From: Gammaproteobacteria bacterium
Lineage (GTDB): Bacteria > Pseudomonadota > Gammaproteobacteria > Tethybacterales > Persebacteraceae
DNA: 64,000 nt
Reading direction: 5' to 3'
NCBI GenBank assembly: GCA_965221835.1
Contig: OZ244916.1
Coordinates: 528,750 to 592,749 of the forward strand
Shown: in pieces, positions 14,983 to 32,794 of the stretch
Position numbering within the stretch: the first letter of the stretch is position 1
Layout: the number at the start of each line of letters is the position of its first letter
Notes under the pieces: generated by a model
What the model saw: only the letters and a program-made list of their open reading frames with translations
What the model was told of the DNA's origin: nothing
The model's database searches: none
Made by a program: the position numbers and the translations under genes

Positions 14983-15066
14983 GCCGAGGTGGCGGAATTG
15001 GTAGACGCGCCGGACTCAAAATCCGGTGTCGGAAACGGCATGAGGGTTCGAGTCCCTCCTTCGGCA
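14983..15066 (+). tRNA. tRNA-Leu (anticodon CAA)
   Basis: GCCGAGGTGGCGGAATTGGTAGACGCG-CCGGA-CTCAAAA-TCCGG, a long variable arm, then GAGGGTTCGAGTCCCTC-CTTCGGC-A. Folded by hand into a cloverleaf. Closely resembles E. coli tRNA-Leu. Confidence 0.9.
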
Positions 15067-15070
15067 CCGC

Positions 15071-15144
<74 letters not shown>

Positions 15145-21292: not shown

Positions 21293-22612
21293 TCAATAGC
21301 GATAATGTGCTGGTTTGAACGGTCCTTCTTTTTTAATTCCGAGATACGCCGCTTGTTTTTCGGTCATTTCGGTAAGCACGGCGCCGACATGTGCGAGGTG
21401 CAGGCGGGCGACTTTTTCGTCTAAATGTTTCGGCAGAACATAAACATCCGCGGCGTATTTTCCATGATTGGAAAATAATTCAATTTGCGCCAGTACCTGA
21501 TTGCAAAAAGAGTTGCTCATTACAAAACTCGGATGTCCGGTCGCGCAACTTAAATTGACCAGACGCCCTTCGGCGAGAACGATGACGCGTTTGCCGTCCG
21601 GAAAAATAAAATGGTCGACCAGCGGTTTGATTTGTTCTACTTTGCATTCTTCGCGCAATTCGGCAATTTGAATTTCGGAATCGAAATGTCCGATGTTGCA
21701 TAAAATTGCATTTTCTTTCATTTTTCGCGCGTGTTCGCAAGTGATGACATCCACATTGCCGGTGGCGGTGACGAAAATATCTGCGCGCCCGCACATTTCG
21801 TCCATTGTCGCAACGCGATAACCTTCCATCGCCGCCTGCAACGCGCAAATCGGATCTATTTCGGTAATCCACACCGCCGCACCCAACGCCCGCAACGATT
21901 GCGCGCATCCTTTGCCGACATCGCCGTAGCCGCAAACGACAGCGGTTTTGCCGGCGATCATCACATCGGTCGCGCGTTTAATTCCGTCCAGCAACGATTC
22001 GCGACAGCCGTAAAGATTGTCAAACTTGCTTTTGGTTACCGAATCGTTGACATTAAACGCCGGACATAAAAGTTCGCCTTTGTCGCGCATTTCGTATAAC
22101 CGCTGCACGCCGGTGGTGGTTTCTTCGGAAATGCCGTACAATCGTGCGCCGACATCGCGAAGTTTTCCGTGTGCGAGAATTGTCGCATCGCCGCCGTCAT
22201 CCAAAATCATATTGGGCGTCCAATCGTTCGGACCGGCGAAAGTTTGTTCCACGCATTGCCAATATTCTTCTTCGGTTTCGCCGCGCCATGCGAAAACCGG
22301 AATTCCAACTGCCGCCATTGCGGCGGCGGCATGATCCTGAGTGGAAAAAATATTGCAAGACGACCAGCGAACTTCCGCACCCAACGCCCGCAAAGTTTCA
22401 ATCAGCACCGCCGTTTGTATGGTCATGTGCAGACAACCGGCGATGCGTGCGCCCGCCAAAGGTTGCGTTTTTGCGTAGTCGCGCCGCAATTGCATCAATC
22501 CCGGCATTTCGGTTTCGGCAATGACGATTTCGCGGCGCCCCCATTCGGCGAGGGACATATCGGCGACGGCGAAGTCGTTTTGCGAATCAATTTTTACAGC
22601 GGCAACGGTCAT
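21293..22612 (-). CDS. ahcY: adenosylhomocysteinase
   Basis: 439 aa: [48 protein letters not shown] and a C-terminal PFKPAHYRY. Confidence 0.95.
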
Positions 22613-22705: not shown

Positions 22706-24349
22706 CTATGCGGCGGGGCGGGCGGCGAGAACGCCGTCCAGCCAGCCGGGATTCATGTCGGGGACGGACGACAATAATAATTCGGTGTATTCGTGATGCG
22801 GCGGTGTAAAAATTTTATCGCGTTCGCCCGATTCCGCAACTTTTCCGTTGTGCATTACCGTCACTTCATCCGCAATCGCGCGCACCAACGAAATGTCGTG
22901 CGTGATAAAAAAATAACACAGCGAAAACTCGTCTTGCAATTTTTGCAATAAACGCAAAATTCCTTCTGCGACAAGTTGATCCAACGCCGAAGTAATTTCA
23001 TCGCAAATAATTAAACGCGGATTTGCCGCCAATGCGCGGGCGATGCAAACGCGTTGTTTTTGTCCGCCCGATAACTCATCAGGTGCGCGTTCCAAAAATT
23101 GTTCGGGCGGCAACTCTATCTGTTCCAAAAGTTCGCAAACGCGAGTATGCAATTTTTTGCCGGAAAGCCCGAGATAAAATTGCAGCGGTCGTCCGACAAT
23201 ATCGCGTACGCGATGACGCGGATTTAACGCAGTATCGGGCGTTTGATAAATCATCTGAATATTTTGCAATAAAGTTTTGTCGCGCGCCGTATAATGCGGC
23301 GGCAACAATTCGCCGTCCATTAAAATGCGTCCGGCGGAAGGCGGTAAAAGTCCGGCGATGCATCGCGCCAATGTGGATTTTCCCGAACCGGATTCGCCCA
23401 CGACAGCAGTCGTCCGCCCGCGATATAGCGACAACGAAACATCCGACAACGCGCGCGCATCGCCGTAATGCGCCGATATATTTTCCGCCCGCAAAAGCGG
23501 TTCTTCGGGCGGCGGCGGTTTCGCGATTTTTTGCATTTGTCGCACCGCCCACAACGATTTTGTATAATCGGCTTTCGGTGCGGAAAGTATTTCGCGGGTA
23601 TCGGCTTCTTCTACTTTTTTTCCGTCTTTTAGTACGAGAATGCGATTTGCCATTTGTGCGACAACTGCCAAATCGTGCGTGATATACAACGCCGCGGTTT
23701 TATATTCGCGCACAATATCGCGAATCGCGGCGAGTACTTCTATTTGCGTAGTGACATCCAACGCGGTAGTCGGTTCGTCAAAAACTATCATATCGGGGCG
23801 GCAAAGCATCGCCATCGCAGTCATCGCGCGTTGCAATTGTCCGCCGGAAACTTGATGCGGATAGCGAAATCCGATTTCGTCCGGCGAAGGCAGATGCAGT
23901 TTGCGATATAATGCGATTGCATCTGCATCCGCTTCGGCGCGCGATTTAATGCCGAATAATACCGCGCTTTCGCGGCATTGTTTTATGAGGCGGTGCGCGG
24001 GATTGAATGCTGCCGCCGCCGATTGTGCGATATAGGCGATTCGCGCACCGCGAAGTTTGCGGCGTTGTTCTTCGCTGCAACGAACGAGATTCGCGCCGTC
24101 AAATAAAACTTCGCCGCCGGTAATGCGACAACCATCGCGCGTATAACCCATTCCCGCCAATCCCAGCGTGGATTTTCCCGCCCCCGATTCGCCGATAAGT
24201 CCCAACACTTCACCGCGCCGCAAAGACAAACTAACGCCGCGAATAATAGGCGTCGTTTCATCACCGCCATCAATATGCAAATCATTAATTTGCAACAACG
24301 GCGCCCCCAAATCAACATTTTTCATTTTGTCATCATCACTAATTTTCAT
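22706..24349 (-). CDS. ABC transporter ATP-binding protein, duplicated ATPase (peptide/nickel type, YejF/DppDF-fusion-like)
   Basis: 547 aa with two Walker A motifs (GESGAGKST, GESGSGKST), two LSGGQ signatures (VSGGQLQR, LSGGQKQR) and two Walker B motifs (IVFDEPTTALD, IICDEITSALD). Confidence 0.9.
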   Translation of the reverse strand: MKISDDDKMKNVDLGAPLLQINDLHIDGGDETTPIIRGVSLSLRRGEVLGLIGESGAGKSTLGLAGMGYTRDGCRITGGEVLFDGANLVRCSEEQRRKLRGARIAYIAQSAAAAFNPAHRLIKQCRESAVLFGIKSRAEADADAIALYRKLHLPSPDEIGFRYPHQVSGGQLQRAMTAMAMLCRPDMIVFDEPTTALDVTTQIEVLAAIRDIVREYKTAALYITHDLAVVAQMANRILVLKDGKKVEEADTREILSAPKADYTKSLWAVRQMQKIAKPPPPEEPLLRAENISAHYGDARALSDVSLSLYRGRTTAVVGESGSGKSTLARCIAGLLPPSAGRILMDGELLPPHYTARDKTLLQNIQMIYQTPDTALNPRHRVRDIVGRPLQFYLGLSGKKLHTRVCELLEQIELPPEQFLERAPDELSGGQKQRVCIARALAANPRLIICDEITSALDQLVAEGILRLLQKLQDEFSLCYFFITHDISLVRAIADEVTVMHNGKVAESGERDKIFTPPHHEYTELLLSSVPDMNPGWLDGVLAARPAA

Positions 24350-24474
24350 ACTATATGCCTAACTATAACAAATCCGGGCGGCAAAAACATTTTCGCCCGA
24401 AATGTCGCGAAAAACTAATTCGCAAAAATGGTTGACAGATACTTTTTATTTTATAATGCCGCCTGATATAGATT

Positions 24475-24551
24475 TGCAAGACAGCCCCGATTGCCGGGCG
24501 CTGTCTGAATACAATACCTCCGGGGAAACGGGCAGCGGAATCTTTCTTGCA
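24475..24551 (+). ncRNA. candidate structured RNA motif, copy 1 (class unknown)
   Basis: Closing stem TGCAAGA/TCTTGCA encloses CCCCGATTGCCGGG..CGCTG-TCTGA..ACCT.CGGGGAA..GGG-CAGCG.ATCTT. Homologous to 27055-27134 with compensatory stem changes. Begins 17 nt after a TATAAT (24452-24457). The strand assignment is tentative. Confidence 0.4.
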
Positions 24552-24558
24552 GATGTTA

Positions 24559-25725
24559 TCAAACGGACGCAAGTTCGCGTTCCACCAGACGCGTCCAATA
24601 GGCGGCGCCAACGGGTAGAATGTCATCGTTAAAATCAAACCGGGGATTATGCAATGCGGGGCTGTCTTTGCCGTTGCCGATGAACATAAAACAGCCGGGT
24701 TTTTCTTTGAGCATCCGTCCGAAATCTTCCGAAAACATCATGCGCGGGCAGTCGCCGTCAACGCGGCTTTCACCGGCGATTTCGCGGGCGGCGGCAATTC
24801 CGGCGCGCGTTTCGGCGGCGGTGTTTGCAGTTATGCCGAAGCAATGTTGATACGAAAAATCGGCGACCGTCGCGCGGTGCGCATCGCAAACGCCGTCCGC
24901 GATTCGTTTAATTGCGTTGCGAATTTCGCCGCGAGTCGCATCGGAATAGGCGCGCGCGTCTCCGCGCAATATCACGCGTCCGGGGATGACATTTTGCGCG
25001 CCGTCCGTTTGGAATTCGGTTACCGAAACTACTCCGCCGAGGGAGGGATTAATCACCCGCGACACCACGGTTTGCAGCGCGCCCACAATTTCGGCGCCGG
25101 CAACTAATGCGTCCGCGCACAAATGCGGCAACGCCGCATGTCCGCCGCGACCTTTGACGGTAATTTGAAAATGATCTTCGCATGCCATCACCGGTCCGGT
25201 GCGAGTGGCAAAATGTCCGGCGGGCAGGGAGGGCAAATTGTGCATCCCGAATATCCGCTGCATTGGAAATTTCCGCAATAATCCGTCGTTCAGCATGGCT
25301 TCCGCGCCCAACCCGTTTTCTTCATCGGGTTGAAAAATAAAAACCGCAGAGCCGTCAAATTTTCCGTCCGCCGCCAATTGCCGCGCCGCGCCCAGCAACA
25401 TCGCCGCGTGACCATCGTGTCCGCAGGCATGCATTTTGCCTTCATAAACGGAGCGATGGCGAAACCGGGATTCTTCGGCAATCGGCAGCGCGTCCAACTC
25501 CGCGCGCAAACCGATGGCGCGCTTTTTTGTGCCGCGGCGCAAAACGCCGACAACGCCGACATCGGCAACGCGGCGGGGATTCGCGCCGCATTCGCGCAAA
25601 ACATTTTCCACTATCGCGGCGGTTCGTTCCACCGCGAATCCCGTTTCCGGATGGCGATGAAAATCCCGCCGCCAGACGGTCATTTGCCGCCGCAACTGCG
25701 CGGCGATTCGCGGAGGCGAAACCAT
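24559..25725 (-). CDS. M20-family amidohydrolase (hippurate hydrolase / N-acyl-amino-acid amidohydrolase-like)
   Basis: Trimmed to MVSPPRIAAQL...WRRDFHRHPETGF. Contains MHACGHDGH, IFQPDEE and HNPRFDFND. Confidence 0.85.
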   Translation of the reverse strand: MVSPPRIAAQLRRQMTVWRRDFHRHPETGFAVERTAAIVENVLRECGANPRRVADVGVVGVLRRGTKKRAIGLRAELDALPIAEESRFRHRSVYEGKMHACGHDGHAAMLLGAARQLAADGKFDGSAVFIFQPDEENGLGAEAMLNDGLLRKFPMQRIFGMHNLPSLPAGHFATRTGPVMACEDHFQITVKGRGGHAALPHLCADALVAGAEIVGALQTVVSRVINPSLGGVVSVTEFQTDGAQNVIPGRVILRGDARAYSDATRGEIRNAIKRIADGVCDAHRATVADFSYQHCFGITANTAAETRAGIAAAREIAGESRVDGDCPRMMFSEDFGRMLKEKPGCFMFIGNGKDSPALHNPRFDFNDDILPVGAAYWTRLVERELASV

Positions 25726-25736
25726 TCGTTTTTGAA

Positions 25737-26762
25737 TCAACGCATCGGCGGCGCGTACAAAATGCCTCCCCGCGACCACAGCGCATTCGGACTGCCCGCG
25801 CGCGGAATGCCGATGGGCGTATTTTCGCCCACATTGGCTTCGTAAATTTCCCCGTAGTTGCCGACTTGCCGAATGACCTGATAAAAACAATCATCCGCCA
25901 ATTTATCGCTCAGAAATTCGCATAAGCCGCTTTCCACCCCCAACAAACGCCGTATTTGCGGATTGTCGGATTTTTTCATTTCCGCCGCGTTTTGCGAAGA
26001 CACGCCCAATTCTTCGGCGTTAAGCATCCCGTAAATTGTCCACCGCACGATATTCGCCCACACATCGTCGCCCTGCCGCACCACCGGCCCCAAAGGCTCT
26101 TTGGAAATGGTTTCGGGCAAAATCACCGCCGCCGACTGATCGCGCAACTCGCTGCGAATTGCCGCCAGTTGCGATTTGTCGGAAGTCAAAACATCGCAGG
26201 ATTCTTTCTCAAATGCTTCGCGGGTTTGCGCCGTATTGCCGTACGATTTGGGGGTAAAGGTCATGCCGTTGGTGCGAAAATAATCGGCGAGATTGCCTTC
26301 CGAAGTCGTTCCCGCCAAAACGCAGACGCGCGCGCCGTCCAGATCTTTGGCGCTGTCCGCCCCCAGCGATTTGCGGACCAAAAATCCCTGCCCGTCAATG
26401 AAGTTGTAATAGGTGAAATTCATTCCCAGCGAACCGTCGCGGTTGAGCGTGTGCGTCGTCGCAAACGGCAAAACATCCACTTCGCCCGCCACCAGCGCGG
26501 TGAGCCCCGATTTGAAGTCCATCGCGACAAATCGCGCCTTTTCGGCATCGCCAAACACCATCGCGGCGATCGCGCGGCAAGTATCGCTGTCCAAACCCGA
26601 ATATCTGCCGTCATCGCCGACCGCGGAAAAACCGGCGATAGTTCCCAGCGCGCCGCATTTTACTTCGCCGCGCGCCAGCACTTCTTCCAGCAAACCCGCC
26701 TGGGCGGCGTTCGCCGACATCGCTATTGCCGCCATCGCAATTCCCGTAATCGCTTTTTTCAT
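25737..26762 (-). CDS. amino-acid ABC transporter substrate-binding protein (AapJ/BztA-like)
   Basis: 341 aa. Signal peptide MKKAITGIAMAAIAMSANAAQA. Contains KCGALGTIAGFS..DDGRYSGLDSDTCRAIAAMVFGDAEK and a C-terminal LWSRGGILYAPPMR. Confidence 0.85.
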   Translation of the reverse strand: MKKAITGIAMAAIAMSANAAQAGLLEEVLARGEVKCGALGTIAGFSAVGDDGRYSGLDSDTCRAIAAMVFGDAEKARFVAMDFKSGLTALVAGEVDVLPFATTHTLNRDGSLGMNFTYYNFIDGQGFLVRKSLGADSAKDLDGARVCVLAGTTSEGNLADYFRTNGMTFTPKSYGNTAQTREAFEKESCDVLTSDKSQLAAIRSELRDQSAAVILPETISKEPLGPVVRQGDDVWANIVRWTIYGMLNAEELGVSSQNAAEMKKSDNPQIRRLLGVESGLCEFLSDKLADDCFYQVIRQVGNYGEIYEANVGENTPIGIPRAGSPNALWSRGGILYAPPMR

Positions 26763-26930
26763 CGTTCATTACTCCTTGTTGCGCCAACAAAATGATGGCG
26801 TTTTTAGAGTTTAATGCAATTTACAGAAAAAGTTGAGAAATTTGCGAAAAATTTTGCCGCATTGTTGCTTTTCGTAATTCTCCGATTCACCTCCGATTCC
26901 ATTCTCGCGTTCGCAAGAATGAAAGAAAAA

Positions 26931-26963
26931 CCGGCGGAGATTCCATTTCCCCGCCGTTTTTTT
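26931..26963 (+). terminator. Rho-independent terminator cassette (copy 1, one stem mismatch)
   Basis: GGCGGAG-ATTCCATTT-CCCCGCC followed by T7. The same hairpin family recurs at 27996, 29584 and 32800. Confidence 0.5.
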
Positions 26964-27009
26964 GCGAGTTTTTTTCGGCAAGCAAAAGTTCGCATTCGCC
27001 GACGGTTTT

Positions 27010-27038
27010 TTGCATTTTCGGGCGGGATATGTTATACT
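27010..27038 (+). promoter_or_regulatory. sigma70-like promoter with conserved spacer box (TTGCAT-N17-TATACT)
   Basis: -35 TTGCAT at 27010-27015, a 17-nt spacer containing TTCGGGCGG, and -10 TATACT at 27033-27038. The box TTCGGGCGG..TATACTTTCGC recurs at 48537-48563 and 62380-62407. Confidence 0.55.
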
Positions 27039-27054
27039 TTCGCCCGAGTTGTTT

Positions 27055-27134
27055 GTGAAGTTCCCCCGATTGCCGGGGGTGCCGTCTGATAGAACACCTG
27101 CGGGGAATGGGCGGCGGTATCTTTACAACTTCAC
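27055..27134 (+). ncRNA. candidate structured RNA motif / 5' leader, copy 2 (class unknown)
   Basis: Closing stem GTGAAGTT/AACTTCAC, inner helix TGCCG/CGGCG, and the same conserved single-stranded blocks as copy 1. Begins 16 nt after the TATACT and ends 68 nt before the lipoprotein ATG at 27203. Confidence 0.45.
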
Positions 27135-27202
27135 GATACAACTCAACGCCCGGCGGTGTCGGGCATCGTGCGGGCGATTTCCCGTTATTAACCTGAAAGG
27201 AA

Positions 27203-27604
27203 ATGAAAATGAAAATTAAAACTATTCTTTTGCCGCTGTTTGCGGTTTTGTTGGCGGGATGCGGCGGTGGTCCCGCACCCGGGCATTTTGTAAAACCGAA
27301 TACATCGGCGGATTATGGACTTTCCTGCGATGCTATACAAGGAGAGATTCATGCGAACGACACACAACTTCGTCAAGCACAAGCGGGAGGGGTAATAAGT
27401 GGCTTTTGCAGTTTCAATAAGGAAGCGTGTTCCCGTGATATTCGGGCTCGCAACAATGTGTTGCAGGGATTGTTGTACCAGAAAGGGTGCGTGAATCCGA
27501 ATGCTGCCGGTGCGGGTGCGAATTCGGGTACGCAACAGCCCGAATCAAAAGAAAAATCGCGAGTGATTATCTGCAACGATGACCAAACATGCGTTGTTGA
27601 ATAA
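27203..27604 (+). CDS. small lipoprotein, paralog A
   Basis: MKMKIKTILLPLFAVLLAGC has the lipobox LLAGC. Conserved C-terminus SKEKSRVIICNDDQTCVVE. The start may be ATG 27209. Confidence 0.7.
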   Translation: MKMKIKTILLPLFAVLLAGCGGGPAPGHFVKPNTSADYGLSCDAIQGEIHANDTQLRQAQAGGVISGFCSFNKEACSRDIRARNNVLQGLLYQKGCVNPNAAGAGANSGTQQPESKEKSRVIICNDDQTCVVE

Positions 27605-27614
27605 TGGGAAAATA

Positions 27615-27980
27615 ATGAAAAAAGCGATATTAATTTTCTTATGCCCGGGATTGTTTGGATGTGCGGGTGCTTTTGTTGAGGCACGCCAGAATTCTGACTA
27701 CGCGCTCACTTGTGATTTGATTGATTACGAGATTATTGAAAACGAATCTGAGATTCTTCGGGGATACGATATTCCCGGAGTTCTCGGCACGGGCAACAAT
27801 ACTTGGATATTAATGCAAAGACGGGATCTTCAAGCAAGATTGAATGTTCTGCATCAACTTCGTAGCGAAAAGAAATGTGGACAAAATACGAACAAACCTG
27901 CGGCATCTAATAATCCCGATTCTAAAGAAAAATCACGCATTATTATTTGCAAAGACGACCAAACCTGCATTATTGAGTAG
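27615..27980 (+). CDS. small lipoprotein, paralog B
   Basis: Trimmed to MKKAILIFLCPGLFGC (lipobox-like). Shares SDYALTCD.I..EI and the C-terminus SKEKSRIIICKDDQTCIIE with paralog A. Confidence 0.65.
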   Translation: MKKAILIFLCPGLFGCAGAFVEARQNSDYALTCDLIDYEIIENESEILRGYDIPGVLGTGNNTWILMQRRDLQARLNVLHQLRSEKKCGQNTNKPAASNNPDSKEKSRIIICKDDQTCIIE

Positions 27981-28029: not shown

Positions 28030-28228
28030 GCGGGGTTTTTCGGCGGCGAAAATGCGTAAATTTATGAATTCCCGTGTTTGCGGCAAATTACAGAACTGTT
28101 ATTGCAAATTACAGAACTGTAAAATGGAATGCTAATGTAAAAACTTTCGCAATTCGGGCGGAAGTTTGTATTCCCCGCCGTTTTTTCGTATAATCTTATT
28201 TTTTACAAAACCGAAAGGGAAAATCATT

Positions 28229-29578
28229 ATGAAAATCAAGACCGTTCTTTTGCCGCTTTTCGCCGCCGTTTTGTTTGCGATTTCGCCGCCCGCTTTTGCT
28301 GGAGAAATTCCATTACTACTCCCTTGTGATGATATAGATAGAAAACACAATAAAAAGCATTATTCAAGAAAAGGAGACAACTCCTCCCACGGCGTGCTTA
28401 TTAGCATGGCTAAATGCTCTGACTCAGAAAATGAAAGAAGGCGGCTTTTGCAAATTGTTTCGGATAGAGGCATTCCTGCAGGAAAATATCTTTTGGCTTG
28501 GCTTGAGTATTCAGAAAATTGGGATGTAGAAGAAACAACAGATTTAGAAAATCTGAAAAAATCTTATGATTTATTTATGGAAACTTTGGAAAGTATTCAA
28601 GATCAGCCCGACTACCCTTATGTAAGTGAAATTGGTGATAAAGAAGTATATAATGACAGTTACTATGAGATGCGATTTGGAATCTTACCCCATTCTTGTA
28701 TTTCTAAAAGTTATGCACTATACGAAATGCAACTTCAAGTACCAATTGAAACTATCAATCAAATCAATAGATACGAAGATCTTCAAAAACAAATTTGCGG
28801 TAGTTTGGATGAAAACAATCAACCATTAGAAACTGCTATCAGTTATAGAAATAAAATTAAAGAACGTGTATTAGAAAAAAGAGGACATAGAATCAGCGGC
28901 TTTGATGAAAGATATGAAAGAAATTTCAATAAATTAGATAATGAAGAACTTGTAAAATTTTTTAGAGATTTGTTATCTTTTGCATTAAATCCAACAGATA
29001 ATACTGATACACAATCAAAATCGGAATATGCGGCGGCGGCGTTTGCGGCGATGTCGGAAAATGAACAGGCGGAGTTTTGTATTTCAATTCGCAGTCCGCA
29101 AAGACCGTGTTTTTGTACAACTGGAATTGTCTGCACGGAAAATTATTGCATAGATAGACCGAATTGCATTGAACCCGAAGATGTGGATTATGGGCATTTG
29201 CTAAACGATTATACGCCGTCCGAAAAATCGGCGGAAGAATCAGCGGCGGAAGAACCGGCGAACGAATCGGCGACAGATGAATCGGTTGCGGACGAATCGG
29301 TGAACGAATCGGCGGCGGAAGAATCACCGGCGGAAGAACCGGCGGAAGAAATAGCGGAAGAACCGGCGGAACCGGAAACAAAAACCGTATGCCGTTCTTT
29401 TGCAAACGGCATAAATCCCGACAATACGGAATGGGGAAGAATTGGTGCAAGCGAAGCGGGAGTAGGCGAAACGGAATATGCGGCTATCCGTGCGGCAATA
29501 AGAATATGCGAAAATGACGGCTTAACAGAATGTCAAACCGATTTGGAAGTCAAATGCGAGGAAGTTGCGGTACAATAA
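28229..29578 (+). CDS. secreted hypothetical protein: AT-rich unique N-terminal part plus shared acidic/Cys-rich C-terminal module
   Basis: Trimmed to MKIKTVLLPLFAAVLFAISPPAFA. The N-terminal ~270 aa have no homolog I recognise (18/60 G+C at 28321-28380). The C-terminal ~175 aa are near-identical to the C-terminus of 31610-32794. Confidence 0.7.
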   Translation: MKIKTVLLPLFAAVLFAISPPAFAGEIPLLLPCDDIDRKHNKKHYSRKGDNSSHGVLISMAKCSDSENERRRLLQIVSDRGIPAGKYLLAWLEYSENWDVEETTDLENLKKSYDLFMETLESIQDQPDYPYVSEIGDKEVYNDSYYEMRFGILPHSCISKSYALYEMQLQVPIETINQINRYEDLQKQICGSLDENNQPLETAISYRNKIKERVLEKRGHRISGFDERYERNFNKLDNEELVKFFRDLLSFALNPTDNTDTQSKSEYAAAAFAAMSENEQAEFCISIRSPQRPCFCTTGIVCTENYCIDRPNCIEPEDVDYGHLLNDYTPSEKSAEESAAEEPANESATDESVADESVNESAAEESPAEEPAEEIAEEPAEPETKTVCRSFANGINPDNTEWGRIGASEAGVGETEYAAIRAAIRICENDGLTECQTDLEVKCEEVAVQ

Positions 29579-29617
29579 CAAAACCGGCAGGGATTCCATT
29601 TCCCCGCCGTTTTTTTA
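29046..29617 (+). repeat. ~570-bp dispersed repeat, copy 1 (3' coding module plus terminator)
   Basis: Near-identical to 32262-32832 at the nucleotide level, with small indels in the GAAGAA/CCGGCG acidic tract. Confidence 0.85.
29584..29616 (+). terminator. Rho-independent terminator cassette (copy 3)
   Basis: GGCAGGG-ATTCCATTT-CCCCGCC (one mismatch) plus T7. Confidence 0.6.
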
Positions 29618-29640
29618 CAAAACCAAAAGGAGAAATTATA

Positions 29641-30777
29641 ATGAAAATCAAATCTATTATTTTATCGCTGTTTGCGGTTTTTGCGTTGGCAGTTTCGCCC
29701 GTTTCTTTCGCCGATAAATGCTCGTTATGCGGTCCTGCCTTTAATGGCGACATTGCTGAAATTAATCGTCTGCTTGCTGGCGGGGCGAATGTGGATGCGA
29801 CAAGTGAGACCGGCTGGACGGCTTTGATGTTTGCGACAATACAGGGACATGCCGAAGTTACCGAGATTCTGTTGGCGGCGGGAGCGGATGTGAATATGGC
29901 GGATAATGGCGGTGGGACGGCTTTGTATAATGCGGTAATACGAAGACATGCCGAAGTTGCGAAAATGCTCATAGCGGCGGGTGCAAATCCAAATGCGGTG
30001 GGTAAAGACGGTATAACGAGTTTGATAATGGCGGCAAGAAACGGATATACCGAAGTTGCCGAGATTCTGTTGGCGGCGGGGGCGAATCCGAATGCGGCAG
30101 AAGAGGATGGCGAGACAGTTTTGATAGCGGCGGCAAGAAACGGACATGCCGAAGTTGCGAAAATTCTCATATCGGCGGGGGCAAATGTGAATGTGGCGAG
30201 TAAGTCCGGCTGGACGGCTTTGATAGCAGCGGGATTCGGACATGCCGAAGTTGTTAAGATTCTGTTGTCGGCGGGGGCGAATCCGAATGCGGAGGATAAT
30301 GGCGGCTGGACGGCTTTGATAGTGGCGGCAAGATACGGACATGCCGAAGTTGCGAAAGTTCTAATTGCGGCGGGGGCGAATGTGGATGCGGCGAGTAATG
30401 ACGGCAAGACGGCTTTGTATTTGGCGGAAGATAACGGACATGCCGAAATTATTAATATCTTGGAATGTTATAAGTCCGATTTAACTTCGCTTCCGCCCGA
30501 AGTGTATGCCGACCGAAAACTGGTAGAAGTGGAACGGCAAATCGGCGAGGGCGATTATGCGGCGGCGGCGTTGACGATGGGATTTATCGCTTGTTATAGC
30601 GAAAAAAATGATGTCGCCCTACCGACAGAGTTTCATTTTAAGAATGCGCAGATATTGCAACTTGCCGGCGACAATAAGAGGGCGTTGACGGCGATTACCG
30701 CCTATTTGAAGGAAGCGGGGCGGGAAGGCGAAAACTATTTGGCGGCATTGCAAATGTTGGATGAGTTGGAAAAATGA
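29641..30777 (+). CDS. secreted ankyrin-repeat protein (about 8 repeats) with helical C-terminal region
   Basis: Trimmed to MKIKSIILSLFAVFALAVSPVSFA. Repeated G.TAL..A...GH.EV...LL.AGAN.N units. Confidence 0.9.
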   Translation: MKIKSIILSLFAVFALAVSPVSFADKCSLCGPAFNGDIAEINRLLAGGANVDATSETGWTALMFATIQGHAEVTEILLAAGADVNMADNGGGTALYNAVIRRHAEVAKMLIAAGANPNAVGKDGITSLIMAARNGYTEVAEILLAAGANPNAAEEDGETVLIAAARNGHAEVAKILISAGANVNVASKSGWTALIAAGFGHAEVVKILLSAGANPNAEDNGGWTALIVAARYGHAEVAKVLIAAGANVDAASNDGKTALYLAEDNGHAEIINILECYKSDLTSLPPEVYADRKLVEVERQIGEGDYAAAALTMGFIACYSEKNDVALPTEFHFKNAQILQLAGDNKRALTAITAYLKEAGREGENYLAALQMLDELEK

Positions 30778-31562
30778 TGAACAAAACAGCGTTTATCGTT
30801 TTCATATTATCATCGTTTCTTTTTGCATTTCCTGCATCGGCGGCGGGAAAGGCGAGAAGCAGTTTGCTGTTGCTGATTGATTCGTCCGGCAGTATGGGCA
30901 ATTCTATCAGTAGCACGAATCCGGAAATAAAAATAGAAGCCGCAAAAGCGGCGGCACAGGCGGCAGTTGCACAGGCGACACAAAAGGGATTGGTAGAAGT
31001 GGCGGTTTTGGCATTTGAGGGCGGATGCGAAAATCCCGTGCCGAGATATTTGGATTTTACGACTGACACGGACGATTTGATTGATTTTATTTGGTCTTTG
31101 CAGCCGGGCGGCGGAACGCCGATGGCAGATGCGGTTTTGTTCGCGAACGATTTTATGAAACGCAACAGCGTTCCCGAAGCGGTATCGCAATTAATTGTTT
31201 TGCTTGCGGACGGGCAAAATGGTTGCGGTGATGTAAAAGAGGCGATGCGGACTTTGCAAAATAGCGGGGTTATATTTCGGCATGAAACGGTCGGATTCGG
31301 TATTGAACCGCTTTCGCAGGCGGCGGAAGATTTGCAGCATATCGCCGAAAAAACGGGTGGCATATATCATCATGCGAATAATGCGAATCAATTGGCGAAT
31401 GTCTTTATGGAGTTGGTGAATACGCTGACGGTTTTGGATATTATCGGAAAGACCGGCGGAATTAGTGCAACGATGAATATATCAAATCAGAGAAATACCG
31501 TGCAAATCCAAAATAAAAAAGGGATTACACGGGAATTGCTTGACGGATTGAAGTTGCCGTAA
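30774..31562 (+). CDS. secreted von Willebrand factor type A (vWA) domain protein
   Basis: 262 aa. Signal peptide MMNKTAFIVFILSSFLFAFPASA. MIDAS motif LLLIDSSGSMG, then GGGTPMADA and VLLADGQNGCGD. Its ATG overlaps the ankyrin gene stop (ATGA). Confidence 0.85.
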   Translation: MMNKTAFIVFILSSFLFAFPASAAGKARSSLLLLIDSSGSMGNSISSTNPEIKIEAAKAAAQAAVAQATQKGLVEVAVLAFEGGCENPVPRYLDFTTDTDDLIDFIWSLQPGGGTPMADAVLFANDFMKRNSVPEAVSQLIVLLADGQNGCGDVKEAMRTLQNSGVIFRHETVGFGIEPLSQAAEDLQHIAEKTGGIYHHANNANQLANVFMELVNTLTVLDIIGKTGGISATMNISNQRNTVQIQNKKGITRELLDGLKLP

Positions 31563-31609
31563 ATTTTGTATAATCTCGTTTTTTTTACAAAACCGAAAGG
31601 GGAATTATT

Positions 31610-32794
31610 ATGAAAATCAAATCTATTATTTTGCCGTTGTTTGCGGTTTTTGCGTTGGCAGTTTCGCCCGTTGCGGTTGCCTCTGAATGCCCGTTATGCA
31701 AACCCGCCAAAAACGGCGATATTGCTGAAGTTAAGCGTTTGCTTGACGGCGGGGCGAATCCGAATGCGGTGTCTTATGACGGCTTTTCTACGGCTTTGAT
31801 GTATGCGACATTTTTCGGACATGCCGAAATTGCGAAAATACTGTTGTCGGCGGGGGCGAATCCGAATGCGGCGATTATTAACGGCGAGACGGTTTTGATA
31901 TTGGCGACAATCAAAGGACATGCCGAAATTGCGAAAATGTTGTTTTCGGCGGGGGCTAATCTGGATTTGGCAGACAACAACGGCGTGACGGCTTTGATGA
32001 TTGCGACAGAGAAAGGACATGCTGAATTTGTAAAAGTGTTATTAGAAAGCGGGGCAAATCCGAATGCGGTGGATAATGACGGCTGGACGGCTTTGGAGAT
32101 TGCGGAACATTATGGACATACCGAAGTTATTTCTATTTTGCAGAATTTTCGCCCGTCTATTTCGCCGGAGGATATTGAGTTTGCGCCGTTTGATGAAAAT
32201 AACATAGATTTGCAGGATGAAATTATTAAGGATAAATCAGAATATGCCTTTCGTCAATTTTCGGCGATGTCGGAAAATGAACAGGCGGAGTTTTGTATTT
32301 CAATTCGCAGTCCGCAAAGACCATGTTTTTGTACAACGGGAATTGTCTGCACGAAAAATTATTGCATAGACAGACCGAATTGCGTTGAACCCGAAGATGC
32401 AGATTACAAACATTTGCTAAATGATTATACGCCGTCCGAAAAATCGGCGGAAGAATCAGCGGCGGAAGAACCGACAAACGAATCGGCAGCAGATGAATCG
32501 TCAGCGGAAGAACCGGCGGAAGAACCGGCGGCGGAAGAATCACCGGCAGAAGAACCGGCGGAAGAAATAGCGGAAGAACCGGCGGAACCAGAGACGAAAA
32601 CGGTATGCCGTGCTTTTGCAAACGGCATAAACCCCGACAATACGCAATGGGGAAGAATTGGTGCAAGCGAAGCGGGAGTGGGCGAAACGGAATATGCCGC
32701 TATCCGTGCGGCAATAAGAATATGCGAAAATGACGGCTTAACAGAATGTCAAACCGATTTGGAAGTTGAATGCGAGGAAGTTTTGGTACAATAA
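31610..32794 (+). CDS. secreted ankyrin-repeat protein (about 4-5 repeats) fused to the shared acidic/Cys-rich C-terminal module
   Basis: 394 aa. Signal peptide MKIKSIILPLFAVFALAVSPVAVA. Ankyrin units. The C-terminus from SAMSENEQAEFCISIRSPQRPCFC to ...ECEEVLVQ duplicates that of 28229-29578. Confidence 0.9.
   Translation: MKIKSIILPLFAVFALAVSPVAVASECPLCKPAKNGDIAEVKRLLDGGANPNAVSYDGFSTALMYATFFGHAEIAKILLSAGANPNAAIINGETVLILATIKGHAEIAKMLFSAGANLDLADNNGVTALMIATEKGHAEFVKVLLESGANPNAVDNDGWTALEIAEHYGHTEVISILQNFRPSISPEDIEFAPFDENNIDLQDEIIKDKSEYAFRQFSAMSENEQAEFCISIRSPQRPCFCTTGIVCTKNYCIDRPNCVEPEDADYKHLLNDYTPSEKSAEESAAEEPTNESAADESSAEEPAEEPAAEESPAEEPAEEIAEEPAEPETKTVCRAFANGINPDNTQWGRIGASEAGVGETEYAAIRAAIRICENDGLTECQTDLEVECEEVLVQ

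Follow-up and report, generated by a model that had tools for sequence, protein, structure and literature searches.

The 64-kb window analysed here (64,000 nucleotides (nt) of contig OZ244916.1, from the gammaproteobacterial assembly GCA_965221835.1) carries two copies of a structured RNA which belongs to a previously uncatalogued family of structured 5′-leader RNAs that is absent from Rfam 15. The family comprises at least 15 distinct copies in about seven metagenome or metagenome-assembled genome (MAG) sources, with six copies in one MAG, and 14 of the 15 copies lie in a 5′ leader and are followed by a GC hairpin. That the family and its long closing stem P1 are real is practically certain. 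The leaders probably act as a shared genetic switch, and we suggest, with a probability of roughly 55%, that they are cis-acting attenuators; a cis-regulatory role in the wider sense has good odds. An earlier note on the window, made from its letters, had described a conserved structured RNA of ~80 nt in two copies whose stems swap their sequence and keep their pairing. This central observation is borne out by the whole family, which has many more copies than the two that were noted.

All coordinates given below refer to the whole window, and both copies lie on the + strand. The 14-mer CCCCGATTGCCGGG is found at 24485 and at 27064, on the + strand in both cases, and nowhere else in the window; the sequence blocks seen by the earlier note in both elements are located where it had placed them. 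The structured domain of copy B extends from 27046 to 27144, as delimited by minimum free energy folds, the covariance-model match and the covariation of P1, and that of copy A from 24465 to 24560, as delimited by folds, the covariance-model match and the flanking genes. Thus, both domains are larger than ~80 nt, as P1 runs on outward beyond a small internal loop. On the + strand copies A and B fold into a common architecture of P1, a P2 with a C-run and a G-run, and a longer P3 that contains conserved U-G pairs, and the folding of the − strand is poorer. In addition, there are about 15 G-U cells in the alignment of P1, and conserved U-G or G-U pairs are also found in P2 and P3, from which we assign the RNA to the + strand.

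P1 comprises 15–20 base pairs (bp) with one bulge or internal loop, and its 3′ strand has a recurrent bulge rAUrC. The P1 sequences are completely different between the copies and saturated with change, and the core which they enclose stays conserved. In the window the closing stem GUGAAGUU/AACUUCAC corresponds to UUGCAAGA/UCUUGCAA, which agrees with the divergent and yet paired stem reported before. When the two strands of P1 are combined within and between copies, the cognate strands reach a mean duplex energy of −25.6 kcal/mol as compared to −12.3 ± 3.4 kcal/mol for 132 non-cognate combinations. In a hand-made structural alignment with gaps treated as N (A5), 14 of 14 P1 pairs are changed on both sides, with 87 such cells against 24.9 expected, and P1 is 100% paired against 52% in shuffles, the former value being inflated as A5 was fitted to per-sequence duplex predictions. 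None of 500 shuffles reached the observed values, and sliding the P1 partner by 1–3 columns in A5 lowers the pairing to 36–41%. The independent test of the duplex energies bears A5 out, and the model-fitted alignment A9 agrees with it as well: P1 is 94% paired, all 14 pairs covary, and again none of 500 shuffles comes up to this. Thus, the closing stem covaries very strongly when further homologs are included.

The homologs were reached through the protein encoded behind copy B as well as through the RNA pattern. Searches among 5.8 billion proteins gave relatives of the lipoprotein downstream of copy B in 5 clusters at first and in 10 later, each of them from metagenomes or MAGs, and on the retrieved contigs the motif stands upstream of each first lipoprotein paralog (L003, L004, L005, L014 and L020/L021), with a different P1 sequence each time. 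A pattern scan of 185,579 species genomes yielded 5 copies on five contigs of 'Gammaproteobacteria bacterium MAG_seacave_91' and 3 chance matches; a sixth copy of this MAG (L021) was reached by protein-guided retrieval. In metagenomes the pattern scan found 3 further copies, all in JAAGOD01, whose source is a sponge holobiont of an Okinawa Trough vent (PMC8518922). As the patterns used for scanning go back to the first copies, part of the core is fixed by the pattern. The covariance model R1 was built from 14 of the 15 copies, L021 being the sole copy outside the training set. True copies score 51–94 bits and L021 scores 68 bits, as against 14–16 bits for the chance matches L009 and L011; all of the pattern-scan matches L009, L011, L012, L015 and L016 were rejected as chance, since they reach at most 16 bits with R1. 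In the window the covariance model matches copy B at 27049–27141 with 86.3 bits (E = 3e-20) and copy A at 24470–24556 with 51.2 bits (E = 9e-11), and a scan of the window gave no third copy. The viral contigs searched for the motif gave no match, and the literature searched for the motif and for the source assemblies yielded nothing beyond the origin of JAAGOD01. As far as our searches reach, the distribution is narrow and confined to uncultured marine Gammaproteobacteria which are at least partly sponge-associated.

These data also bear on the trivial explanation that the element has no function as an RNA and is a duplicated promoter region, a mobile repeat such as a miniature inverted-repeat transposable element (MITE) or a Correia-like element, or a product of chance. 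The narrow lineage to which the family is confined and the position of its copies before non-orthologous genes, as if they were mobile, would fit such a view. However, a MITE keeps its terminal repeats and varies in between, and the family does the opposite, with a conserved interior and with P1 strands unrelated in sequence from one copy to the next; neutral duplicates would not keep 14 of 14 P1 pairs over 87 double changes around a fixed core. With E-values of the copies in R1 between 1e-10 and 1e-22, we consider this explanation essentially refuted.

The position of P1 relative to the promoter is equally constant. All 15 copies have a −10 hexamer, then a GC-rich spacer of 6–7 nt (for example, TTCGCCC, GGCGGC or GCCGCTT), and then the G that opens P1. 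As this holds for all copies, the RNA should begin with P1, that is, P1 should open at +1. The earlier note had the structure start near +10; with the extended P1 it opens 7–8 nt after the −10 hexamer and thus at +1. Promoters under stringent control by guanosine tetraphosphate (ppGpp) and DksA typically have such GC-rich discriminators. For copy B the promoter scan called a sigma-70-type promoter at 27009–27038 (+), with the −35 element TTTGCA, an 18-nt spacer containing TG, and the −10 element TATACT at 27033–38; the GC-rich discriminator TTCGCCC, which was read from the sequence, fills the positions 27039–27045 (+) up to the putative +1 at G27046. Copy A has a −10 element TATAAT at 24452–57 (+), a GC-rich discriminator at 24458–24464 (+) and the hexamer TTGACA at 24432–37, merely 14 nt upstream of the −10 element. 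The promoter scan called no promoter at copy A, which is explained by the short spacing between this hexamer and the −10 element. The leaders are presumably transcribed in vivo.

Inside P1 lies a core of ~62 nt which is ~85–90% conserved and has 34 invariant alignment columns. As a model it is best drawn as a three-way junction of P2, a hairpin of C5G with CG5, of P3, a 9-bp stem with an 8 × 3 internal loop AUAnAAnA/RAA and a CC-UNCG-GG cap, and of J3/1, a GUAUCUU linker. In copy B the outer part of P1 (27046–52/27138–44) is followed by an internal loop UU/GAU and by the inner part (27055–62/27127–34), P2 is found at 27063–68/27074–79 with the loop AUUGC, P3 at 27080–88/27108–16 with the 8 × 3 internal loop and the mini-hairpin CC-UGCG-GG at 27097–27104, and J3/1, GGUAUCUUUAC, at 27117–26. 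Copy A is organized in the same way: P1 outer is located at 24465–68/24557–60, P1 inner at 24472–81/24545–54, a P2 shortened to 4 bp at 24486–89/24495–98, and P3 at 24499–507/24529–37 with the mini-hairpin CC-UCCG-GG at 24517–24 (all + strand). The compensatory inner helix that had been pointed out between the two copies is P3, with UGCCG/CGGCG in copy B and CGCUG/CAGCG in copy A. The module AUAnAAnA-CC-UNCG-GG-RAA is present in 14 of the 15 copies, and L021 deviates with CCCUUGAG. N is the sole freely varying base in ACCUNCGGG, because it is the variable position of the UNCG loop. A pseudoknot between CCCCG and CGGGG, which the earlier note had considered, is not supported: the simplest partner of CCCCG is the neighbouring CGGGG, with which it forms the hairpin P2, the proposed pairing lacks covariation, 10 of 14 copies have a mismatch at its fifth pair, and in L021 only 2 of the 5 pairs are left.

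The core may adopt a second fold. In Fold I P2 and P3 are formed, and in Fold II, which excludes the former, CCGGGGGUG pairs with CACCUNCGG and CCCCCG pairs with GGGCGG. Each of the two folds is ~91% pairable and neither is convincingly above shuffles, covariation is unable to choose between them, and in 10 of 15 copies their constrained energies differ by no more than ~3 kcal/mol. Some weak arguments speak for Fold I: copy A keeps P3 via two double changes and has Fold II disrupted, the loop of P2 varies in length between 4 and 5 nt as expected for a hairpin loop, L021 retains P2 through a register shift, and P3 resembles a hairpin of the Rfam family sRNA-Xcc1 which is supported by covariation. 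In addition, the 3′ strand of P1 can pair over 5 bp with the J3/1 pentamer in 7 of 14 distinct copies as compared to 1.04 expected from shuffles (p ~ 3e-5). This complement of the pentamer sits at the bulge of P1, and in L006 it is doubly compensated (AUGUC/GGCAU). Thus, the core seems to be bistable with some alternative pairing under selection. Further readings of the core were tried and rejected. A coding function is excluded by TGA and TAG stops and by indels of 1–2 nt between the copies. An RfaH ops element (GGCGGTA in GGCGGCGGTATCT) was ruled out from the alignment, as this stretch varies (GCAGTAT, GCAATGT) and has no ops G8, and as regards a Neisseria DNA-uptake sequence (GCCGTCTGA in copy B), GCCGTCTGAA has 0 occurrences in the window. 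A pairing of the P3 loop CGGG with CCCGG of the block that follows P1 is not supported, as in L021 the loop is changed to UGAG and the block is unchanged, and neither is a pairing of UAUC in J3/1 with the loop GAUA, for which all changes are of the wobble-compatible kind.

Directly 3′ of P1 the leaders contain an invariant block. In copy B it is AACGCCCGGCG (27145–27155, +), which forms the 5′ half of a downstream hairpin. Among the 13 leader platforms examined, 12 have the block, (A)CAACGCCCGGCG, without any change, and L008 has AGCG... instead; copy A is the only copy that lacks the block altogether. The block is followed, after a loop of 4–5 nt, by a complementary segment whose register differs by lineage: CCGGCG/CGCCGG, CGGCGG/CCGCCG, CCGGC/GCCGG, GCCCG/CGGGC in copy B and GGCGGG/CCCGCC in L021, and in the sponge copies CCGGCG/CGUUGG (with G-U pairs) or CAACGC/GCGUUG. 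In copy B the platform spans 27147–27189 (+), with either GCCCG (27148–52) pairing with CGGGC (27160–64) or CGCCCG (27147–52) pairing with CGGGCG (27171–76), followed by the U-rich AUUUCCCGUUAUU; the 68 nt between the element and the lipoprotein ATG and the GC hairpins therein had been described correctly. A hairpin after P1 is found in 14 of 14 leader copies; it is followed by 0–6 U, usually 3–5, and a Shine-Dalgarno sequence, with the ATG 20–45 nt further on. A second promoter would not fit into this gap, and transcription of the gene therefore has to pass the hairpin. An invariant 5′ half with a partner that drifts between registers is the typical mark of a segment that serves another purpose as well.

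Taken together, we propose the following scheme for the leaders as cis-acting attenuators. Each copy would be transcribed from its own sigma-70-type promoter, with the RNA opening at the first G of P1. P1 would clamp the core, and the folded core would bind an effector, which might be a small molecule, a second messenger or a dedicated protein. The state of the core would then decide whether the RNA polymerase stops at the hairpin with its U tract or reads into the gene, and in this way scattered genes for envelope and secreted proteins would be placed under one signal. Of the two folds of the core, Fold I would be the slightly likelier active one on the weak arguments given above.

Several observations weigh against this proposal. 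With the criteria for an intrinsic terminator set to a GC-rich stem of at least 5 bp, a loop of 3–8 nt and at least 5 U within 8 nt, the hairpins of copy B and L018 were not called in the terminator scan; those of L004 and L014 were called, which speaks for the proposal. A canonical U tract is present in ~7 of 13 hairpins, L013 and L021 have none, and the hairpin energies are modestly better than those of shuffles (z −0.1 to −2.8). P1 is far longer and more stable than the P1 of a typical riboswitch and does not overlap the hairpin, and no simple strand-exchange path from the core to the terminator is visible. A fold sequestering the block through GCCGGG:CCCGGC is 11–27 kcal/mol less stable than the closed fold. 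Within the core helices of the 15-copy family no significant covariation was found. Copy A, which has neither a downstream gene nor the block, suggests that the domain may also work outside a leader. Finally, the orthologs of the L008 lipoprotein in four other assemblies (L024–L027) have short plain leaders from which the motif is absent, so that the leader appears to be a module which individual genes have gained or lost; among these assemblies is the sponge metagenome which holds three copies of the motif. No ligand is inferable from the identity of the regulated genes. 'Riboswitch' is therefore one hypothesis among several, and a ligand-binding riboswitch, in which the binding of a ligand is at most a prediction, is in our view rather doubtful. 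As for the riboswitch-like layout proposed in the earlier note, the position in a 5′ leader before a GC hairpin stands, and a P1 of 15–20 bp that is separate from this hairpin is not usual for a riboswitch.

The hairpin could also be read as the end of a small RNA (sRNA) gene. A stop at the hairpin would then free a stable RNA of ~130 nt which is protected by P1 and acts in trans, and the expression of the gene behind it would be due to leaky read-through. An RNA of this type, acting by base-pairing or by sequestering a protein, fits copy A, which consists of a promoter and the domain with no gene behind, and the hairpins with U tract called as terminators in L004 and L014 as well as the very stable closed fold (−52 to −65 kcal/mol) are in agreement with it. 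The nearest relative in Rfam, sRNA-Xcc1, which was discovered in Xanthomonas campestris with a length of ~88 nt, was detected at ~88–100 nt and has been described as a trans-acting sRNA (PMC2996969; Chen et al. 2011, as cited elsewhere). On the other hand, 14 of the 15 copies have a ribosome-binding site (RBS) and an open reading frame (ORF) within 20–45 nt that has no promoter of its own, and hence read-through must matter; several copies lack a U tract, and single-stranded segments which are identical across copies, with at least six copies per genome, are unusual for a base-pairing sRNA. Thus, we consider a trans-acting sRNA improbable and the attenuator better suited to the leader copies, in which we infer both termination and read-through.

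A different role can be assigned to P1 itself. In a constitutive 5′ module for stability or processing the P1 duplex would shield the mRNA from 5′-end-dependent decay or would be a site for RNase III, and the core together with the bulge of P1 would be the recognition surface for a nuclease or a chaperone. The mRNAs of envelope and secreted proteins such as ompA and lpp are known to be long-lived, and the 5′ stem–loop of ompA is protective. The location of P1 at +1, its 15–20 bp with the recurrent bulge, the U tracts which are weak or absent in half of the copies, and the regulated genes, which encode envelope and secreted proteins, would all be accounted for. However, such a module needs neither a 62-nt core with ~85–90% identity nor an 11-nt block nor conserved alternative pairings, and the arrangement of the block and the hairpin is attenuator-like. 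This explanation appears to us about as improbable as the trans-acting sRNA.

The relation to sRNA-Xcc1 has to be considered separately. When the whole window was scanned with Rfam 15 at the gathering threshold two adjacent tRNA genes at 14983–15144 (+) were the only matches, and scans of both copies and 9 homologous loci with a permissive E-value gave no family at threshold and no riboswitch or cis-regulatory class at or near its gathering score, in line with the failure of the earlier note to match the element to a known class. The weak matches to ylbH, the mgtC leader, RF_site1 and miRNA models lie off the motif or are isolated and were rejected. At 1486–1565 and 3170–3290 of L019 long AT-rich hairpins with sub-threshold matches to miRNA precursors were observed, which are probably unrelated inverted repeats. 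The sole recurring weak match is sRNA-Xcc1 (RF02221), with 15.0 bits for copy B, 17.7 bits for L010 and 20.3 bits for L014. True sRNA-Xcc1 members, taken from plasmid and chromosome records (two of the PLSDB 'plasmid' records among them are chromosome-sized, with 4.9 Mb and 2.2 Mb), reach 69–73 bits with RF02221, and R1 run with filters off on the true sRNA-Xcc1 loci L028–L031 gave no + strand match. As the architectures differ otherwise and R1 misses the members of sRNA-Xcc1, we reject membership in this family. Nevertheless, a distant relationship or a shared module is plausible.

If the likeness is taken further, the leaders might switch in the manner of an sRNA-Xcc1-type fold. Here, the aptamer would be made of GCCGGGGG:CGCCCGGC, P3, and GUAUC:GAUAC with the 3′ strand of P1; it would sequester the 5′ half of the terminator and free the 3′ half and thus be the on state (antiterminator), and P1 and P2 with the terminator would be the off state. 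The weak match to RF02221 runs from GCCGGGGG to the CGCCCGGC block and aligns in this one register in three copies (leader-only scans), and the true sRNA-Xcc1 share the P3 module and have a covarying closing helix. GCCGGG and CCCGGC are invariant and complementary, the other partner of the block is the 3′ half of the hairpin, and the complement of the GUAUC-type pentamer in the 3′ strand of P1 is far above chance with one double compensation. However, this fold crosses P1 topologically and is 11–27 kcal/mol less stable in every copy, and P1 should win kinetically because its 5′ strand is transcribed first. In addition, GCCGGG:CCCGGC never varies, R1 misses the true sRNA-Xcc1, and the leaders reach 15–20 bits against a gathering score of 53. 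We therefore treat this modelled fold as a sub-hypothesis and not as an established switch; it appears less probable than either the sRNA or the stability module.

All of the ORFs downstream of the leaders begin with a signal peptide or a lipobox, and the regulated genes code for a small lipoprotein family, two ankyrin-repeat proteins, an outer-membrane beta-barrel or OmpA-like protein, another lipoprotein and several unknowns. As regards the dealings of uncultured marine symbionts with their hosts, exported proteins, those with ankyrin repeats included, head the list of candidates, and to our knowledge nothing is known about the control of their genes. A shared conserved leader before the genes of exported proteins points to a single governing signal. 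In its most far-reaching form the proposal would be a new riboswitch class with an aptamer related to sRNA-Xcc1, which senses a second messenger or a host-derived signal and switches on an exported host-interaction regulon; we regard this as speculative and more likely wrong than right. If true, sponge-associated Gammaproteobacteria and other marine symbionts of this class would have a scattered regulon of secreted ankyrin-repeat proteins, lipoproteins and outer-membrane proteins, and the integron and mobile-element 'sRNA-Xcc1' would also be cis-acting sensors rather than trans-acting sRNAs. If the leaders bind a ligand, the class would be of unusual design, in that its core is bistable and is clamped by a very long P1 opening at +1. 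With ~140 nt the leader is small enough to be synthesized and studied in vitro, and the organism need not be cultured. The likeness to sRNA-Xcc1, partial as it is, also invites a fresh look at this widespread RNA of integrons and other mobile elements.

In the window the first gene after copy B is the small lipoprotein gene at 27203–27604 (+), with a signal peptide, the lipobox LLAGC and the RBS AAGGAAA; its product has no match in Pfam. The tandem paralog at 27615–27980 (+) is probably co-transcribed with it. Both proteins end with ..SKEKSR(V/I)IIC(N/K)DDQTC(V/I)(V/I)E, and the protein family (P0001–P0010) has about 10 clusters among the 5.8 billion proteins. Further downstream, a cluster of signal-peptide genes at 28166–32794 encodes two ankyrin-repeat proteins, a vWA-like protein and two proteins which share an acidic repeat and a Cys-rich C-terminal domain, a gene content typical of host-associated bacteria. 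A second repeated element is found before other secreted-protein genes at ~26925–26975, ~28100–28230 and ~29530–29640. It consists of a terminator-like hairpin, GGAATTCC..CCCCGCCGTTTTTTT, followed by a conserved ribosome-binding region, and is visible in the ORF translations as a shared pseudo-peptide PFPRRFFTKPKGEIIMKIK.

The leader position proposed for the element holds for copy B and fails for copy A, which lies between two − strand genes, an M20 peptidase (24559–25890) and a double ABC ATPase (22706–24349). The 3′ end of copy A, that is, its outermost P1 pair, overlaps by 2 nt with the stop codon of the convergent M20 peptidase gene. It is followed by a hairpin GGACGC-AAGUUC-GCGUUC at 24565–24583 (+) without a U tract and without the AACGCCCGGCG block, located inside the antisense peptidase coding region. 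As the annotation of the window has no + strand gene downstream, copy A is an orphan antisense element and no leader. The gene of an S-adenosylhomocysteine hydrolase is located at 21293–22612 (−), downstream of the ABC ATPase.

Among known RNAs, sRNA-Xcc1 is the closest to the new family. It is frequent in mobile DNA, integron cassettes among others, whereas the new family is located on the chromosomes of marine symbiont-like bacteria. In Xanthomonas integron cassettes sRNA-Xcc1 stands upstream of symE. A second and weaker copy (34 bits) was noticed in Neisseria gonorrhoeae 140 nt downstream of the first (L030, 1710–1780). sRNA-Xcc1 has a hairpin like P3 with a stem, a 5′ loop AUAcAAuA, 2–3 C-G pairs, a stable tetraloop, a 3′ loop GAA and the stem again, and over AAUACAAUACC and GGGGAA its consensus is exactly that of copy A; its tetraloop, however, is of the GNRA type (CCC-GNAA-GGG) instead of UNCG. 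Both families have a G-rich 5′ segment which is complementary to a C-rich 3′ segment, and both are found ~40 nt upstream of an ORF. For the true sRNA-Xcc1 elements the ORF is of the BRO, the KilA-N or an unknown type, and this position suggests that these elements act as cis-regulators. The genes concerned are toxin and antirepressor genes on mobile elements for sRNA-Xcc1 and genes for exported proteins for the new family, which in addition has the 15–20 bp P1 at +1, P2, and the invariant block with its hairpin. The closing helix of sRNA-Xcc1 covaries; its counterpart GCCGGGGG/CGCCCGGC is complementary and yet never varies, crosses P1 and is energetically disfavoured.

With riboswitches that act by termination the new family shares a conserved fold in the 5′ untranslated region, covarying stems around conserved junction and loop nucleotides, a GC hairpin followed by U, and several copies per genome before genes of related function. 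By context, second-messenger classes come closest, such as the cyclic di-GMP-I (GEMM) riboswitches, which also occur in many copies per genome upstream of genes for secreted or surface proteins. The P1 of the new family is, however, much longer and stands off the terminator, and no riboswitch of Rfam 15 matches it. Antitermination leaders (protein-dependent or RNA-autonomous: RAT/BglG-type, ANTAR targets, HK022 put, EAR) have a promoter-proximal structure followed by a terminator-like hairpin as well, but the new family has no RAT consensus, no dual hexaloops as in ANTAR targets and no two-stem layout as in put, and no cognate regulator gene was identified. The Correia and MITE repeats of Neisseria are alike in being short and multi-copy, with self-complementary ends, a position upstream of genes and a long duplex in the transcript; such repeats carry promoters and form hairpins cleaved by RNase III. 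They have conserved terminal repeats and a variable interior, and the new family has the opposite. Thus, among structured 5′ leaders the family is unusual in combining a long P1 at +1, a bistable core, a conserved block after P1, and a module shared with sRNA-Xcc1.

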